A stretch of DNA of 64,000 bases from Escherichia phage Ec_MI-02: sequence record OP856590.1. The stretch is one strand, 5' to 3'. Under the pieces are notes generated by a model that was not told where the DNA came from, made no database searches, and saw only the letters and a program-made list of their open reading frames with translations. Positions 8,175-38,608 of this stretch are shown piece by piece (within the stretch, counting starts at the first letter, position 1; every line of letters starts with the position of its first letter). A program made the position numbers and the translations under genes.

Positions 8175-8645
8175 TTAATCATGTTTCCACACCCCATCGG
8201 TATTTGACCAAAGTCGCTGATTATCTGATCCTCGCCACAACTTTTTGGTCGGAAGATTTTTCTCATACTTCCCATCAATAATAACATCAACATATTTAAG
8301 CATTTCTAGTTGTTTAATATCTTCAAATTTATATCCTGTCCACAACCAAATGCTTTTATTTGGATAAAGATTTTTTACTGTTTGAACAATGCAATGAATA
8401 ACATCTCGGTTATCAGGATAGAGAGGGTCTCCTCCAGTTATAGTTAATCCTTCTATATAATCATTATTCAAACATTTAATTAATTGTTCCAGCGTTTCAC
8501 CAGTGAATGGAACACCGTTTCTAGCATTCCATGTTGATTTATTATAACACCCTTCGCATTTATGCAAACAACCTGTAACGAAAAGAACAGTTCGGCACCC
8601 AGGACCATTAACAAAGCAACACGGATATATTCTGTCATAATTCAT
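8175..8645 (-). CDS. nrdG: Anaerobic ribonucleotide reductase activating protein (radical SAM)
   Basis: 156 aa; N-terminal MNYDRIYPCCFVNGPGCRTVLFVTGCLHKCEGCYN radical-SAM/Cys cluster; same length as T4 NrdG. Confidence 0.9.
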   Translation of the reverse strand: MNYDRIYPCCFVNGPGCRTVLFVTGCLHKCEGCYNKSTWNARNGVPFTGETLEQLIKCLNNDYIEGLTITGGDPLYPDNRDVIHCIVQTVKNLYPNKSIWLWTGYKFEDIKQLEMLKYVDVIIDGKYEKNLPTKKLWRGSDNQRLWSNTDGVWKHD

Positions 8646-9474
8646 TTATATATTTCCAATTATAGCCTTCAACACTTTTACGTTCGCCATTTAAACATTT
8701 TAAAATATTTCCTTTGCTAGAAATATTAAAATATTTTGCTGCGTCTGGTATATAATTAAATGTTTTTAAAAGAACACCATCTTTGTATGCGCCAAATAAA
8801 TTAAGAGTATATTTTTCTCGAAGACGCTGATGTTTCCTTTTCATAACCTCAGGATTTGCATACGCCAGCTTTAATGAATTTCTATGTTTTTCTTTTACTT
8901 CAGGTTTTTGCATTGCTAACTTAGTTAGCCTGGAAATTTTATTTCTAACTTTATCAGTTTTCATTGCATTTGACAAATTTAATAAAGTTTTATTTCTAAC
9001 TTCAGGTTTTTGCATTGCTAACTTAGTTAGTTCGCTATGTCTTTTTCTAAAATCGTCATCTTTCCATATATTTTTCGATAATTTTGACATAGAGCGGTGA
9101 AATAATTCCCTTTCTTTGGAATACAGTTTAAAAATTTCATCCAATTCATCAGTATTAAATCTATCAGTATTCGAGTTTATCATTCTATGAAAGGCATAAC
9201 ACATTTTACTATTACTTGTTTTAGCTAAATAGTAATGAGCCAATGCATGGTCATAATATGACAAATTAACAATATTCCATTTATCTGTTTTATATTCAGG
9301 AAATATAGATTTGGGAAGCACGTGATGTGCTTCCGTTTTCCCCTTTATTTTAGGATTATTATAATTTTTTATTATCAAATCAACATATGACAATAATAAA
9401 TCATTATTTTCTTCAAATATTAAAGTTAATTTATCATTCACAAAATCACAGGGATAAAATCTATCGTAATTCAT
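8635..9474 (-). mobile_element. HNH-family homing endonuclease (Mob-like), between nrdD and nrdG
   Basis: 279 aa; HNH core AHHVLPKSIFPEY...NIVNLSYYDHALAH; C-terminal duplicated motif LTKLAMQKPEV (x2) from a 35-bp direct DNA repeat; first 12 codons nearly identical to nrdG start. Confidence 0.8.
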
Positions 9475-11288
9475 TGGTGTTTAACCCTATGCATGATTTC
9501 TTTATTTTTTCCAAGATTAAATCCGCGTTCATTCGGATTTCCCAAATAACCACATGTTCTTCTTATTGTGTTCATCTTTTTAGGATCAGTTTCTCCACAA
9601 ATAGAACAAACAAACCCGTTTTCAGTAGGAGTCATTTCATGGGTACTTCCACACGTAAAACATTTATCTACTGGCATGTTAACACCAAAATAATCTAAAT
9701 GTTGTGCAGCATAATCCCATACAGCCTCAAGACCTTTTAGGTTATTTTTCATATCAGGAAGTTCAACATAAGAAATGTGACCACCTGTCGCAATGAAATG
9801 ATATGGTGCTTCGCGAGAAATCTTTTCAAACGGAGTGATATTTTCTTCTACTGAAACATGGAAACTGTTAGTGTACCATCCTTTATCAGTAACATCTTTT
9901 ACACTTCCATATTTTTCAGTATCAAGTTTACAGAAGCGATAACAAAGGTTTTCAGCAGGTGTAGAATACAAACTAAAAGCAAAACCGGTTCTTTCAGTCC
10001 ACTGCTTAAGACGAGCATTCATTTTAGTTAAAATTTCTTGTCCAATATCACGACCGACAAGAATATTCAATTCGTGAATACCAATGTATCCCAAAGACAC
10101 TGAACTTCTACCGTTTTTAAATAACTCAATTATATCATCATCGGGTTTAAGACGAACCCCGAATGCACCTTCTTGGTAAAGAATAGGAGCAACAGTCGCT
10201 TTAACTCCTTTTAAAGAATTAATTCTACACATCAAAGCTTCAAAGCATAAATCCATTCGCTCATTGAACAATTCGGCAAATTTTTGTTCATTGAACTGTG
10301 TTCCAATATAAGAATCTAACGCAATGCGAGGAAGATTCAGTGTTACAACACCAAGATTATTACGTCCATCAAGAATTTCATTACCAGTCGAATCTTTCCA
10401 TACGCTCAAGAAACTACGGCAACCCATTGGAGAAACAGGAATAGATGAACCGGTGATAGCTTTATTGTTCTTAGCTGAAATAATATCAGGATACATTCTT
10501 TTGCTTGCACATTCTAGAGCAAGCTGCTTAATATCATAGTTCGGATCGTCTTTATAAAGATTAACGCCTTCTTCAACAAACATAACAAGCTTAGGGAAAA
10601 TAGGAGTTATCCCATCGCGACCAAGACCTTTAATACGATTTTTCAGAATTGCTTTCTGAATCATTCGTTCAGTCCAGTCAGTTCCCGTACCAAATGTAAT
10701 TGTTACAAAAGGCGTTTGTCCGTTTGAACTAAAGAGAGTATTTACTTCATATTCATAAGCTTGGAATGCATCGTATACGTCTTTTTCTGTTTTAGATTGG
10801 GCATAATTCAACGCATCAGCGATTTGCCATTTTTCTGCGTCCTCAATATGTTTTGCATAGGTGCGTTTAACATAAGGAGAAAGTACTTTATCTACATTCG
10901 CAAAAGTCGTTCCACCGTATTGGTGAGAAGCAACCTGTGCAGTAATTTGTGCCATAATTGCAGTAGCGACGCCGATTGATTTAGGAGTTTCAATCTGCGC
11001 ATTACCGAGCTTAAATCCGTTCTCAAGCATTCCTTTTAAATCTACTAAACAGCAATTAGTAAATGGAAGAGCAGGGGAATAATCAATATCGTGGAAATGG
11101 ATAATTCCGCTTTCATGCGCTTTCATAATAAAAGACGGGACCATATTTTTGGCAATGTGTTTAGACACAATACCGGCCATAAGGTCCCGTTGAGTTGGAA
11201 AAACACGAGAATCTTTATTAGCATTCTCGTTCAAAAGGTCTTTATTAGTTTTATGAATCAATCCTTCAATTTCTTTTTCAATTGTCAT
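9471..11288 (-). CDS. nrdD: Anaerobic ribonucleoside-triphosphate reductase, uninterrupted (no intron)
   Basis: 605 aa continuous ORF, ATG start; C-terminal glycyl-radical region and Cys-rich tail (CFTCGSTHEMTPTENGFVCSICG...RRTCGYLG); position upstream of 49. Confidence 0.95.
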   Translation of the reverse strand: MTIEKEIEGLIHKTNKDLLNENANKDSRVFPTQRDLMAGIVSKHIAKNMVPSFIMKAHESGIIHFHDIDYSPALPFTNCCLVDLKGMLENGFKLGNAQIETPKSIGVATAIMAQITAQVASHQYGGTTFANVDKVLSPYVKRTYAKHIEDAEKWQIADALNYAQSKTEKDVYDAFQAYEYEVNTLFSSNGQTPFVTITFGTGTDWTERMIQKAILKNRIKGLGRDGITPIFPKLVMFVEEGVNLYKDDPNYDIKQLALECASKRMYPDIISAKNNKAITGSSIPVSPMGCRSFLSVWKDSTGNEILDGRNNLGVVTLNLPRIALDSYIGTQFNEQKFAELFNERMDLCFEALMCRINSLKGVKATVAPILYQEGAFGVRLKPDDDIIELFKNGRSSVSLGYIGIHELNILVGRDIGQEILTKMNARLKQWTERTGFAFSLYSTPAENLCYRFCKLDTEKYGSVKDVTDKGWYTNSFHVSVEENITPFEKISREAPYHFIATGGHISYVELPDMKNNLKGLEAVWDYAAQHLDYFGVNMPVDKCFTCGSTHEMTPTENGFVCSICGETDPKKMNTIRRTCGYLGNPNERGFNLGKNKEIMHRVKHQ

Positions 11289-20492: not shown

Positions 20493-20523
20493 ATAGTACC
20501 ATAAAGCTTTATGCTTGTAAACC
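20493..20523 (-). promoter_or_regulatory. T4-type early promoter
   Basis: Minus strand GGTTTACA-17 bp-TGG TACTAT upstream of the ATPase gene. Confidence 0.55.
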
Positions 20524-20544
20524 GTTTTGTGAAAAAATTTTGAA

Positions 20545-20570
20545 ATAAAAAAGGGAGCCCGAAGGCTCCC
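20545..20570 (-). terminator. Rho-independent terminator
   Basis: Minus strand GGGAGCC-UUCG-GGCUCCC followed by UUUUUU, directly after the stop of the 20573..21586 gene. Confidence 0.7.
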
Positions 20571-27384: not shown

Positions 27385-27728
27385 CTAGTACTCAATCCTC
27401 GATTATAAGAATCTACTAAACGGTCAACCATTGAATGACAAGCGGCTTTATCTTTCTCCTCCGCAACTGAACATTCTAAGGTATTCCACTTTTTAGCATA
27501 TCGCTTTAACAATGTATCATTTTTGTATCTGCTTGATTTATCTCTTTCTCCGTCTTTATATGCATATATTAATTTCTGTGCAAATTCAGCTTGGCATGCT
27601 TTATTTTTCCCGCAATAATCCGCGGCAGTACGATTTACATACTCTCTAATTTCAGTATATGATGTATCTGCTGATGCAGAAGCAGAAAATGAAATTAATC
27701 CTATACATAAAACCAAAATTTTAGTCAT
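27381..27728 (-). CDS. Small secreted/periplasmic protein (signal peptide; T4 vs position)
   Basis: 115 aa; N-terminal MTKILVLCIGLISFSASASA signal peptide; four cysteines in mature part. Confidence 0.6.
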   Translation of the reverse strand: MTKILVLCIGLISFSASASADTSYTEIREYVNRTAADYCGKNKACQAEFAQKLIYAYKDGERDKSSRYKNDTLLKRYAKKWNTLECSVAEEKDKAACHSMVDRLVDSYNRGLSTR

Positions 27729-28266
27729 TTACTATTTCCAAAAGTTTATTATTTTTAAGGTAATTAGCCTTTTCTAGGACTTCAGAAGCATATTTAGAAC
27801 CTGCTTTAACATTCCATCCCGAATTATAAGAGGATATTGCTTTTCTTATATCGCCCTTATGTATATTTAACCAATAAGAAAGTTCAATGTACGCCCAGGA
27901 AGCTGAATTGGACCGTTTATTCAACATTCTTTTTATTTCAGCATCGGTCATATTATAACCAAGTTCCTTAACTCTTGCTCGCATGGTCGGCAAATAATTT
28001 TGGAACATTCCATAGGCATGATGCTTTGGTTTAGATTTTAAATTAACTCCGGCAGAGCTTTCTTGCCATAAAATAGCAGCCATTATATGACCCAATCCGC
28101 TCTTGTGGATATTTTTGTGTGTTTTATATTTTCCATCCTTAGAAAATTGTTCCCCGAATTGATATGCGTAACGCATGTTATCGAGTTGGACATTACTGAA
28201 AGTATGCTCGGAGCTATGTGCCATCATTGAAATGGCCAATAGACCAGCGAGTAGTGCTTTTCTCAT
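27721..28266 (-). CDS. Periplasmic lytic transglycosylase-like protein (SLT motifs)
   Basis: 181 aa; signal peptide MRKALLAGLLAISMMAHS; SLT-type motifs ILWQESS (catalytic Glu-Ser), GMFQ and SYNSG. Confidence 0.65.
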   Translation of the reverse strand: MRKALLAGLLAISMMAHSSEHTFSNVQLDNMRYAYQFGEQFSKDGKYKTHKNIHKSGLGHIMAAILWQESSAGVNLKSKPKHHAYGMFQNYLPTMRARVKELGYNMTDAEIKRMLNKRSNSASWAYIELSYWLNIHKGDIRKAISSYNSGWNVKAGSKYASEVLEKANYLKNNKLLEIVND

Positions 28267-29339: not shown

Positions 29340-29553
29340 ATTTGACTTCCTCACCAGTACATAAATCATATTCAACTAAACGAATAGGTTCATGAATGCC
29401 ATATCCTTGAACAGAAATTTCTGTCGTAGGATAAATTCCATCAATATCACCCATGGTCCATGCTTCATTAAATTGCTGTTCGCCTGAATTACTAAACCAC
29501 TCGGCGAAAGCATTTAACACATCTTTAGAACCTTCAATAATTATCTTTGCCAT
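29332..29553 (-). CDS. Hypothetical small acidic protein (vs.5 position)
   Basis: 73-aa ORF, ATG start overlapping upstream stop (TAATG). Confidence 0.55.
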   Translation of the reverse strand: MAKIIIEGSKDVLNAFAEWFSNSGEQQFNEAWTMGDIDGIYPTTEISVQGYGIHEPIRLVEYDLCTGEEVKYD

Positions 29554-29915
29554 TACAAGCTCTCAGTAAAGGTACGAGCGATAACGTCGCGCTGCTGTTC
29601 CGGAGTCAGAGAGTTAAAGCGAACTGCATAACCGGATACACGGATGGTCAGCTGCGGATATTTTTCCGGATGCTTAACTGCATCTTCCAGAGTTTCACGA
29701 CGCAGAACGTTAACGTTCAGGTGTTGACCACCTTCAATTTTAACTGTAGGATGTGATTCAATTTCAATTTCACGGGTGTGCAAACCGTAGAAAATTTCTG
29801 GGTCTACAAAAGAGTCCTCTTTAAAGGTTTTAGAAACAATAATTCGTGCTTGAATACCATCTTCAAAATAAATAGTACCTTTATGTGTGCCTTCAAGAAT
29901 TTGATATGCTTTCAT
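29553..29915 (-). CDS. Autonomous glycyl-radical cofactor (GrcA/YfiD-like; T4 Y06I/vs.6)
   Basis: 120 aa; C-terminal 57 residues [59 protein letters not shown] carry the glycyl-radical signature RVSGYAVRF and match E. coli GrcA as recalled. Confidence 0.85.
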
Positions 29916-29921
29916 ATAACC

Positions 29922-30251
29922 TCAATTAGAAAATAAATTTATCCAAGACTGTTCTTTAATTAAAAATGGCTCAGAATCATATGCCATTAAACTTTGGGTG
30001 ATTAGTCCTTTAAAAGGTCCATCAATAAATTCCATGGTAAAATATGGAATTTTATTCATTAATCTTGCATTAGGAGCAGTACACAAAACTCTGCATCCTT
30101 TGAATACACCTTTTTGTAATTTGTATTGCTTAGGATAAAATTCGCTCAAGACATTATTATTTGCCAAAATTTCAAAATGATTCACCAATTTATTTTTAAT
30201 AGTTTTTGGCGAAAAATAAAGATATTCGAAAAGCTGTGTGTCTGTCATCAT
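29922..30251 (-). CDS. Hypothetical protein (vs.7 position)
   Basis: ORF track 29922..30302; ATG pair at 30251/30248 overlaps the upstream stop (ATGATGA), giving about 109 aa; start choice uncertain. Confidence 0.5.
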   Translation of the reverse strand: MMTDTQLFEYLYFSPKTIKNKLVNHFEILANNNVLSEFYPKQYKLQKGVFKGCRVLCTAPNARLMNKIPYFTMEFIDGPFKGLITQSLMAYDSEPFLIKEQSWINLFSN

Positions 30252-31423: not shown

Positions 31424-31840
31424 TTAAATGTAAATAGTTTTACCGTAGTATTTATACCAGTATGGCTTCATTAAAATTTTTTCATCGAGTCGTTGTTGAC
31501 TCAACTTAATAGCTGATTTGCATGGATTATAATCATTTTTCCATTCTGCTGGAATATCGCTGATGTCAGGAACTTCAGTATCTTTTATACTAAACCCACG
31601 TTTTAAGCATTCCGTTATAATGTCTGATTGACGCTTTCGCAAAAATTCTAACTTATCGTAAAAGAACGTGACATGACCAGAACCTAAAATAAACTCGGAA
31701 GATATTTTAAAATCTTTAACCCGCTTACCATTTGCAACATGTTTACGAACTATACCAAAAACACGCGGCAGTTCACGGTATTCTGCGATTAAATGTTGAT
31801 CAGCAAGTTCAGATACTAAAGTCAAATTAATACGAGTCAT
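31424..31840 (-). CDS. denV: Endonuclease V (pyrimidine-dimer DNA glycosylase)
   Basis: 138 aa [29 protein letters not shown]...; matches T4 DenV length and sequence as recalled. Confidence 0.95.
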
Positions 31841-37321: not shown

Positions 37322-37397
37322 TGGTCGAGGCAGTAGGGATCGAACCTACGACCTAGGACTTAGAAGGTCCTTGCTCTTCCTTCTGAGCTATGCCTCG
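37322..37397 (-). tRNA. tRNA-Arg (anticodon UCU)
   Basis: Hand-folded 76 nt: acceptor CGAGGCA/UGCCUCG, D-arm GCUC..GAGC, anticodon loop CUUCUAA, T-arm GUAGG-UUCGAUC-CCUAC, encoded CCA. Confidence 0.8.
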
Positions 37398-37401
37398 TAT
37401 T

Positions 37402-37476
37402 TGGCGGACGTGATAGGATTCGAACCTATAACCAATCGCTTAACAGGCGATCGCTCTGCCATTGAGCTACACATCC
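37402..37476 (-). tRNA. tRNA-Asn (anticodon GUU)
   Basis: Hand-folded 75 nt: acceptor GGAUGUG/CACGUCC, anticodon stem AUCGC/GCGAU, loop CUGUUAA, T-arm AUAGG-UUCGAAU-CCUAU, encoded CCA. Confidence 0.7.
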
Positions 37477-37480
37477 AAAT

Positions 37481-37567
37481 TGGTGGGGAGTGATGGAGTC
37501 GAACCACCCGAGTCGCAATGACAATGGATTTACAGTCCACACCGCTACCTCTACGGGATAACTCCCC
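37481..37567 (-). tRNA. tRNA-Tyr (anticodon GUA), long variable arm
   Basis: Hand-folded 87 nt: acceptor GGGGAGU/ACUCCCC, anticodon stem GUGGA/UCCAU, loop CUGUAAA, long variable arm, T-loop UUCGACU, encoded CCA. Confidence 0.7.
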
Positions 37568-37579
37568 TAATTCTTAATT

Positions 37580-37654
37580 TGGTGGCCCTGGGTGGAATTG
37601 AACCACCATCTGGCGATTATGAGTCGCTTGCTTGAACCTTCCAGCTACAGGGCC
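37580..37654 (-). tRNA. tRNA with CAU anticodon (Ile-lysidine type or Met)
   Basis: Hand-folded 75 nt: acceptor GGCCCUG/CAGGGCC, anticodon loop CUCAUAA, T-arm GGUGG-UUCAAUU-CCACC, CCA; D-arm somewhat irregular. Confidence 0.6.
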
Positions 37655-37662
37655 AAATTTTC

Positions 37663-38145
37663 TTATTTTATGTAATATTTATTTAAAAACTTTCTAGCTT
37701 GAGTATGGCTAACATTTATAGCGTTTGCATAATTTTTAATAAAACCTCGTTCATCCATATTAAAATTTTCTAATATTTTTAATCGTCTAGTTATCTCATC
37801 TTGACTTAAGGTACTTGCATTATTTTTAGAAATTTTTTCTAAGGACTGTGCCGAGTGTTTTCGACCATTAAAATTAAAATTTTTAGATTTTGGAGGAAAT
37901 CTAGCATTTAATCTCGCATCTTTTGTATTTTGATTATTAGTTGCGCAATATATGTTATTTAATGAATATGGTCCTTTATCGCCGAAACGGCACATGCAGT
38001 ATTCATGACCCTTTCTTCCGCGCTTATCATAATTTCCCGTTGATTTCCACCAATGCAGCCATTCATCAAAAGTTAAATTCCATTCAATGTTTCTACGTAT
38101 AGCAGAATTCCGCTGAGAAATATATTTTGCATAATCTTCTTTCAT
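37663..38145 (-). CDS. Hypothetical protein inside the tRNA cluster, possible HNH(HNN)-type endonuclease
   Basis: ORF track starts at GTG 38148; ATG at 38145 gives 160 aa; segment GHEYCMCRFGDKGPYSLNNIYCATNNQN resembles an H-N-N nuclease core; same position as segB in T4. Confidence 0.45.
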   Translation of the reverse strand: MKEDYAKYISQRNSAIRRNIEWNLTFDEWLHWWKSTGNYDKRGRKGHEYCMCRFGDKGPYSLNNIYCATNNQNTKDARLNARFPPKSKNFNFNGRKHSAQSLEKISKNNASTLSQDEITRRLKILENFNMDERGFIKNYANAINVSHTQARKFLNKYYIK

Positions 38146-38192
38146 CACAAATTTCTCTACTTATTCAATACACTGAGCTAAATCAGCAAAAC

Positions 38193-38282
38193 TGGCGGAG
38201 GCGATAGGATTTGAACCTATGAGTCGCCGGAGCGACTGCCGGTTTTCAAGACCGGTGCATTAAACCACTCTGCCACGCCTCC
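38193..38282 (-). tRNA. tRNA-Ser (anticodon UGA), long variable arm
   Basis: Hand-folded 90 nt: acceptor GGAGGCG/CGCCUCC, anticodon stem CCGGU/ACCGG, loop CUUGAAA, long variable arm, T-loop UUCAAAU, CCA. Confidence 0.8.
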
Positions 38283-38284
38283 AG

Positions 38285-38358
38285 TCTCCGCGGCAGGATT
38301 TGAACCTGCGACATTCTGCTCCCAAAGCAGACGCTCTACCAAACTGAGCTACACGGAG
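38285..38358 (-). tRNA. tRNA-Pro (anticodon UGG)
   Basis: Hand-folded 74 nt: acceptor CUCCGUG/CGCGGAG, anticodon loop UUUGGGA, T-arm GCAGG-UUCAAAU-CCUGC; no CCA; 2 nt from tRNA-Ser as in the T4 Pro-Ser dimer. Confidence 0.8.
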
Positions 38359-38368
38359 TAAATTAAAT

Positions 38369-38442
<74 letters not shown>

Positions 38443-38447
38443 AAATT

Positions 38448-38534
38448 TGGTGCGAGAAGTGGGACTCGAACCCACAAGGAAATCATTCCGCAGCATTTTA
38501 AGTGCTGTGCCTTTACCAATTTGACCATTCTCGC
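38448..38534 (-). tRNA. tRNA-Leu (anticodon UAA), long variable arm
   Basis: Hand-folded 87 nt: acceptor GCGAGAA/UUCUCGC, anticodon stem CAGCA/UGCUG, loop CUUAAAA, long variable arm, T-loop UUCGAGU, CCA. Confidence 0.8.
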
Positions 38535-38535
38535 G

Positions 38536-38608
38536 CTGGGAATAAAGGACTCGAACCTTTGCATCCTGGAATCAAAATCCAGTGCCTTACCAACTTGGCT
38601 AATTCCCA
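38536..38608 (-). tRNA. tRNA-Gln (anticodon UUG)
   Basis: Hand-folded 73 nt: acceptor UGGGAAU/AUUCCCA, anticodon stem CUGGA/UCCAG, loop UUUUGAU, T-loop UUCGAGU; no CCA; abuts tRNA-Leu as in the T4 Gln-Leu dimer. Confidence 0.8.

Follow-up and report, generated by a model that had tools for sequence, protein, structure and literature searches.

Evidence that the glycyl-radical domain of the phage gene vs.6 was replaced by host grcA DNA in Escherichia phage Ec_MI-02 and, separately, in Klebsiella phages

The T4-type phage gene vs.6 encodes a small glycyl-radical protein. In Escherichia phage Ec_MI-02, the C-terminal half of this protein is that of the E. coli cofactor GrcA (YfiD), and the N-terminal half is not. 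How did one half of a phage gene come to be so close to a host gene, where did the other half come from, and which enzyme would the product serve? We addressed these questions in a stretch of 64,000 nucleotides of Ec_MI-02 (OP856590.1), referred to here as the window. The window is from a Tequatrovirus.

We found that the gene is the ortholog of T4 vs.6 (Table 1). The two are near-identical (97.5% in DNA; 117/120 residues in protein) and occupy the same place between vs.7 and vs.5 in the vs-denV region. The gene is 100% identical to the copy in Shigella phage pSs-1. By the T4 annotation, its flanking genes are Vs.7 and Vs.4. The TAA stop codon of vs.6 shares bases with the ATG of the next gene, vs.5 (TAATG). 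Promoter and terminator scans around vs.6 gave counts no higher than those in shuffled sequence.

A first-pass annotation, made from the letters alone, had called the product a GrcA-like glycyl-radical protein, and the Pfam Gly_radical and GrcA matches agree. Pfam Gly_radical (PF01228) covers residues 60-101 of the 120-residue protein (E = 2.3e-18; 67.1 bits, cutoff 22.2). The GrcA/YfiD model TIGR04365 (IPR011140) covers residues 20-120 at 154.7 bits, which is under its curated cutoff of 170 because the N-terminal half has diverged. The protein matches the GrcA structure PDB 6OWR (E = 1.7e-41), and its residues 55-120 align to residues 694-759 of pyruvate formate-lyase (PFL) with ~80% identity (E = 1.4e-26). 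It is a small standalone protein with a C-terminal Gly_radical domain, the RVSGYAV motif and a homologous N-terminal half (below), as in the GrcA/YfiD family. The RefSeq name for T4 vs.6 (NP_049730) is "autonomous glycyl radical cofactor GrcA". We describe no new kind of system here, as gene, protein family and biochemical activity are already known.

Table 1. Positions of vs.6, its parts and nearby features in the 64,000-nt window
Feature	Position	Strand	Description	Basis
vs.6 / Y06I-type CDS	29553..29915	(-)	120 aa + stop, ATG start	ORF listing
Shine-Dalgarno GAGG	29920..29923	(-)	8 nt 5' of ATG; shares bases with vs.7 stop codon	
Phage-lineage 5' half	29738..29915	(-)	gene nt 1-178, residues 1-59; AT-rich, GC3 0.18	
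5' recombination junction interval	29727..29739	(-)	gene nt 177-189; K-I-E-G-G-Q codons	maximum chi-square
Host-derived tract	29563..29737	(-)	175 nt; codons for GrcA residues ~67-125; GC3 ~0.44	
Glycyl-radical motif RVSGYAVRF	29616..29642	(-)	residues 92-100	translation
Radical glycine G95 codon	29631-29633	(-)	equivalent to GrcA G102 / PflB G734	alignment numbering
Phage-specific CDS 3' end	29553..29562	(-)	last 10 nt; 2 synonymous mismatches to E. coli, and stop	
Endonuclease V (denV) ORF	31424-31840			by-eye reading of ORF listing
vs.1-like ORF	27721-28266			by-eye reading of ORF listing

We found that the 3' half of vs.6 is E. coli grcA almost nucleotide for nucleotide. E. coli grcA matched gene nt 179-363 in all 5426 complete genomes (183/185 among the matches listed). 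Pairwise alignment gave a perfect run of 175 nt, with 0 differences at any codon position, third positions included; both mismatches lay within the last 10 nt of the gene and were synonymous, and similarity stopped at the stop codon. The 3' junction of the tract thus lies just 5' of the last 10 nt of the CDS. Neither the search of the 5426 genomes nor the pairwise alignment detected DNA similarity to E. coli grcA in the upstream 178 nt of vs.6. When the whole window was compared with the E. coli genomes by megablast, the tract was the only region common to all 5426. In protein, residues 61-120 are identical to GrcA 68-127; these 60 residues are slightly more than the C-terminal 57 noticed in the first-pass annotation. 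A tract at least 95% identical to that of the window was found in 642 phage records.

The change from phage-like to host-like sequence is abrupt. We did a triplet breakpoint analysis with the window, vs.6 of Enterobacter phage CC31 (as a proxy for the phage lineage) and E. coli grcA (as the donor). The ratio of phage-like to host-like informative sites was 61:8 upstream of nt 177 and 1:36 downstream of nt 189 (Fisher p = 2e-19). T4 vs.6 has the same breakpoint interval. Base composition changes with it: GC3 in the window vs.6 is 0.18 in the N-terminal half and 0.44 in the tract, and the corresponding halves of E. coli grcA are at 0.42 and 0.43. Uniform divergence along the gene would have spoken against the host-derived C-terminal block that the first-pass annotation had proposed; both the DNA alignment and the breakpoint analysis show a sharp block instead.

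Could the tract be similar without any recent transfer, through extreme purifying selection on a near-invariant radical domain? High conservation of the C-terminal protein sequence was seen in all phages and bacteria examined, and the 12 variants seen in the tract among phages are all at third codon positions, as such selection would give. However, the comparison of synonymous sites refutes this explanation, and we give it a negligible probability. Synonymous sites are identical too, over all 175 nt. We compared the tract with 81 bacterial grcA loci of other species: a second Escherichia species matched at 179/183 positions and the next-closest others at about 167-170/183. E. coli grcA itself differs from those other species at 13 positions or more, and in other Enterobacteriaceae whose block is identical in protein, the DNA matches at only 164-170/183. 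CC31-type phages, with nearly the same protein domain, have only 75-80% DNA identity and a GC3 of 0.21-0.30. Because there are no differences even at third positions, and the next species are much lower, the identity of the tract is far beyond what chance or purifying selection would produce. The direction of transfer was from host to phage, because the tract has host GC3 and nests within the species-level diversity of the host gene, and because the bacterial genes are colinear across the Enterobacteriaceae.

Some relatives retain the native state of vs.6. Enterobacter phage CC31 and other Karamviruses have an orthologous 120-residue vs.6 at the same locus with the same type of N-terminal half (72-76% DNA identity to the window; 73% for CC31). 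Their C block is AT-rich, has its own substitutions (LTKETLEDAVQH...KEM), and at 75-80% DNA identity is no closer than that to any bacterial grcA. The CC31-type Karamviruses represent the gene before conversion. RB43 and T5, which are E. coli phages, also keep blocks that are not host-like, so not every E. coli phage with a GrcA-like gene has been converted.

We found that the N-terminal half of vs.6 is a diverged GrcA N-terminal half. The first-pass annotation had judged these 60 residues to be unrelated to GrcA, and this did not hold. Using hhalign, we aligned two profiles of N-terminal halves, each cut off before EGGQH; one was made from 33 distinct phage halves and the other from 66 distinct halves of bacterial GrcA. 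The profiles matched with a probability of 98.3% (E = 2.2e-14) over 59 columns with 29% identity, and had in common the elements ARxIVSK / ARCxxAK, ED and RE. The BLASTP alignment with GrcA already reaches residue 22 of the vs.6 protein. The N-terminal half alone matched none of the NCBIfam models; its homology was seen only by profile-profile comparison. The same two-part architecture is present in T4-like phages of Enterobacter, Klebsiella, Citrobacter, Cronobacter, Providencia and Aeromonas, and also in T5, T5-like phages and jumbo Yersinia phages. By sequence comparison, the N-terminal half is orthologous across the T4-like, T5-like and jumbo phages.

These results bear on whether a captured 3' fragment of host grcA was fused to an unrelated phage ORF. 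Such a fusion would account for the absence of DNA similarity upstream of nt 178 and for the failure of the N-terminal half alone to match an NCBIfam model. However, the homology of the N-terminal halves over 59 columns argues against it, as do CC31, RB43, T5, 44RR and jumbo phage fHe-Yen9-04, which have C blocks that are not host-like and are already two-part. We therefore regard a fusion as highly improbable. The N-terminal homology and the wide distribution of the two-part architecture indicate that vs.6 is an old phage homolog of grcA.

Several more distant GrcA-like genes differ in their C blocks. T5-like Demerecviridae have a 122-residue GrcA-like gene product that begins MKAYQ, as in the T4-like phages, with a C block ~72-75% identical to host grcA. 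Three Klebsiella Slopekvirus-like phages (L087, L109 and L110) have a block with the Klebsiella/Salmonella-type sequence LLDAVEH, although its DNA reaches only ~84% identity with any host allele; a conversion that is older and has since eroded could explain this, as could convergence under adaptation to the host. In the 354-kb jumbo Yersinia phage fHe-Yen9-04 (L092, 1-828), the GrcA-like C block has a GC3 of 0.11.

The tract is far less diverged between genera of E. coli phages than the DNA around it. Between the window and Mosigviruses, divergence was 30-34% in the 400-nt flanks, 11-12% in the N-terminal half, 0-2.9% in the tract and 30% in the last 10 nt. Differences at third positions numbered 13/59 in the N-terminal half and 0/57 in the tract (p = 1e-4). 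The N-terminal half is under purifying selection, because it is far less diverged than the flanks and its differences are mostly at third positions. The variants in the last 10 nt (gene nt 354-360) are common to phages, with 10-30% divergence between phages there compared to 0-3% in the tract. These divergences indicate that the replacement of the tract in E. coli phages is younger than the split between Tequatrovirus and Mosigvirus. The private variants of the tract were evenly divided (6 toward A/T and 6 toward G/C), so they gave no signal of amelioration toward A/T by which the event could be dated. In Tequatroviruses whose listed host is Yersinia or Serratia, the allele is that of E. coli and not that of the listed host. 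We also considered EC.W14-2 (116 kb), which resembled a T5-like phage and has a 100% E. coli tract; this would have added a third independent event, in another family, but the record is an incomplete Tequatrovirus, and we rejected it.

The tract could have come to be in both genera by more than one route. It might have been captured once from the host and then spread between Tequatrovirus and Mosigvirus by recombination among phages, with no continuing exchange with the host. The 5' junction interval is identical in both genera, T-even genomes are mosaics, and phage APCEc01 has private variants in its tract that are in 0/5426 E. coli genomes. Because they are absent from all of these genomes, the APCEc01 variants arose in the phage lineage, and at least some divergence within phages thus followed capture. 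On the other hand, no phage tract is closer to the tracts of other phages than it is to E. coli, the differences from E. coli are mostly singletons, and the 3' end is unlike between T4 (an exact run of 176 nt to E. coli) and the others (173 nt). An independent tract derived from K. pneumoniae, described next, indicates that the process recurs. We consider a single capture unlikely, if well within reason. For the E. coli phages, one capture followed by spread among phages and repeated conversion by the host would both fit the present data.

We found that Klebsiella phages carry a second tract that matches their own host. The Jiaodaviruses phiA85, KP13MC5-5, TU02 and an IMG/VR sequence (L119) have the same mosaic, with a 5' junction at nt 180-186 (p ~1e-14 to 1e-16). 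The first 100 nt of their C block are 98-99/100 identical to K. pneumoniae grcA, with the next-best species at 91-93, and the L119 block matches K. pneumoniae grcA at 157/158 positions over the first 158 nt. The Jiaodavirus proteins have the Klebsiella-type residues L77 and E81. At the 21 sites in the tract where grcA differs between E. coli and K. pneumoniae, the E. coli phages were E. coli-like at 21/21, the Jiaodaviruses were K. pneumoniae-like at 16-19/21, and CC31, RB43 and Lychee were mixed. The K. pneumoniae grcA used here is from PLSDB entry CP125156.1, a 5.37-Mb chromosome labelled as a plasmid, and this gene is absent from the 80 other loci. (The grcA of K. aerogenes NCTC10006, PLSDB LR134122.1, has a frameshift that is probably a sequencing error.) The N-terminal halves of phiA85 and KP13MC5-5 have 0/180 differences and their C blocks have 12/183; even in close relatives, therefore, the history of one half is not that of the other. 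Since the block in these Klebsiella phages is of the K. pneumoniae type, host-matched replacement took place at least twice.

The function of vs.6 can be proposed from what is known of its homologs. Oxygen cleaves PFL at G734 (PMC8683613), and T4 Y06I reconstitutes the cleaved enzyme (Wagner et al. 2001, as summarised in PMC8683613); E. coli YfiD and T4 Y06I are the only validated PFL spare parts (same sources). In YfiD, residues 61-127 are a duplicate of the PFL C-terminus with the same fold as PFL 693-759, and PFL-AE installs the radical on them. Residues 1-60 of YfiD are disordered; catalysis does not need them, but binding to cleaved PFL and efficient activation do (PMC8683613). We found that the tract (residues ~60-118) corresponds almost exactly to the structured domain, and the phage-specific part to the disordered recognition half.

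By its 97.5% identity to the T4 gene, we infer that the Ec_MI-02 vs.6 protein works as T4 Y06I does. Once oxygen has cleaved host PFL at the radical glycine G734, the small vs.6 protein would bind the cleaved enzyme and its C-terminal domain would stand in for PFL residues ~693-759. The host activase PflA would then put a glycyl radical on G95, and PFL activity would be restored. T4-type phages shut off host gene expression, so a phage-encoded copy might be of benefit: by analogy with T4, it would keep PFL, and with it anaerobic or microaerobic pyruvate metabolism, going in the infected cell.

The first-pass annotation had gone further and suggested that the protein may rescue oxygen-damaged glycyl-radical enzymes, pointing to nrdD and nrdG in the phage. 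Both genes are present (nrdD, 9471-11288; nrdG, 8175-8645; both on the minus strand). The suggestion stands for PFL, by analogy with T4 Y06I (PMC8683613), and does not extend to NrdD. The best BLASTP match of the vs.6 protein to NrdD of the window (605 residues) had an E value of 2.6 and lay off the radical domain. Rescue of NrdD therefore seems unlikely: the protein lacks similarity to the radical domain of the phage NrdD, and its own domain is the host grcA allele. We considered more broadly that vs.6 could be a spare part for NrdD or another glycyl-radical enzyme, activated by the phage NrdG. Besides the presence of nrdD and nrdG, there are weak hints in this direction: in fHe-Yen9-04 the homolog (g132) lies two genes downstream of nrdD (g130), which encodes the large subunit of class III ribonucleotide reductase, and a role in nucleotide metabolism was speculated on by Nolan et al. 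2006 (PMC1524935), before phage genomics had taken up the role of GrcA. It has also been called conceivable that other glycyl-radical enzymes have spare parts (PMC8683613). However, a domain that is identical to that of host GrcA, 80% identical to PFL 694-759 and without a match in the phage's own NrdD is not what this would predict, and the tract follows the host grcA allele, which indicates a host partner (PflB / PflA). We think there is very little chance that NrdD or another such enzyme is the target, and we favor PFL.

The nrdD region has two other features. The gene is one uninterrupted ORF of 605 residues. T4 nrdD carries a group I intron, and Ec_MI-02 therefore appears to lack the nrdD intron. 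Between nrdD and nrdG is an ORF of 279 residues (8635-9474, minus strand) with a weak NUMOD-like homing-endonuclease domain (21.1 bits, below the Pfam gathering score of 27).

Based on these results, we suggest, with a probability of about 0.85, that vs.6/Y06I, an old phage homolog of grcA, is a spare part for cleaved PFL, and that its radical domain has been exchanged at least twice, each time for that of the matching host. The ancestral vs.6 was AT-rich. In the E. coli phages of Tequatrovirus and Mosigvirus, homologous recombination (gene conversion) has put the E. coli grcA allele in place of the whole stretch that was still host-like, which starts at the EGGQH codons and ends ~10 nt short of the stop codon. 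In the Klebsiella Jiaodaviruses, the equivalent tract comes from K. pneumoniae grcA. We propose more tentatively, at somewhat less than even odds, that the radical domain of this gene, in a strictly virulent phage, evolves in concert with host grcA, and that repeated conversion keeps the spare part matched to PflB and PflA while the N-terminal half remains phage-specific. The pattern suggests that a match to the host is required of the structured radical domain, whereas the disordered N-terminal half can diverge freely, which bears on how spare-part proteins recognise damaged PFL.

The vs.6 locus shows, as a clean case from nature, host DNA that has replaced homologous sequence in a T4-type genome. 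A 175-nt host patch, the only one of its kind in 64 kb, is common to two genera with 30%-diverged flanks and has a parallel in Klebsiella phages, and is for these reasons worth keeping in view. If concerted evolution is the correct explanation, the locus would be a rare, datable and tractable case of DNA flow from host to T4-type phage despite degradation of host DNA and hmC modification. A 2010 review of T4-related genomes found few clues to the route of lateral transfer and its agents unclear, and does not mention vs.6 (PMC2993671). In the literature that we searched, we found no description of the DNA mosaic of vs.6 or of recurrent host-matched conversion; older key papers may have noted the DNA identity.

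Other parts of the window also have matches in bacterial or plasmid DNA. A T4-type cluster of 9 tRNA genes lies at 37322-38608. The tRNA-Asn/tRNA-Tyr segment (37416-37570) is 84-89% identical to ~230 non-mobilizable E. coli plasmids of 90-110 kb that have no annotation there; the plasmid sequences are probably tRNA genes of phage-plasmids. Three pieces between ~30845 and 37655 are present at 96.8% identity in E. coli plasmid CP057073.1 (137 kb, from cattle faeces), where they are annotated "hypothetical protein"; they may be a T4-like fragment in the plasmid or an assembly artefact. An intergenic segment of 52 nt (20504-20555) is 96% identical to sequence in one E. coli chromosome (strain BE104) and in a K. 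pneumoniae plasmid. It is predicted to contain a strong sigma-70-type promoter-like sequence on the minus strand and adjoins a GC hairpin with a T-run; its sole Rfam match, to L20_leader, is weak and below the gathering score.

Comparison with known systems places vs.6 of Ec_MI-02 closest to T4 Vs.6/Y06I. The two are the same gene in the same vs.7-vs.5 position with the same E. coli-identical tract, and differ at three residues of the N-terminal half (T47A, S54P and H55Q; window residue first) and at 2 synonymous sites among the last 10 nt. E. coli GrcA/YfiD (P68066) is likewise a small standalone, two-part protein, with a homologous N-terminal half and an identical C-terminal 60 residues and radical glycine. 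In contrast to GrcA, however, the N-terminal half of the window protein is only ~29% identical and is 7 residues shorter, the 5' half of the gene is AT-rich, and the gene lies in a phage operon. The radical domain of PflB (residues 693-759; PDB 2PFL / 1H16) is the piece that is lost or displaced after cleavage by oxygen, and vs.6 is its counterpart; unlike that domain, vs.6 is free-standing and not part of an 85-kDa enzyme, and its DNA is nearer to grcA (99%) than to pflB (~81%). The vs.6 of CC31 and other Karamviruses differs in that its C block is phage-native, whereas that of the window is derived from E. coli. The Jiaodavirus genes have the same mosaic and the same 5' junction at the EGGQH codons, with K. 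pneumoniae and not E. coli as the donor.
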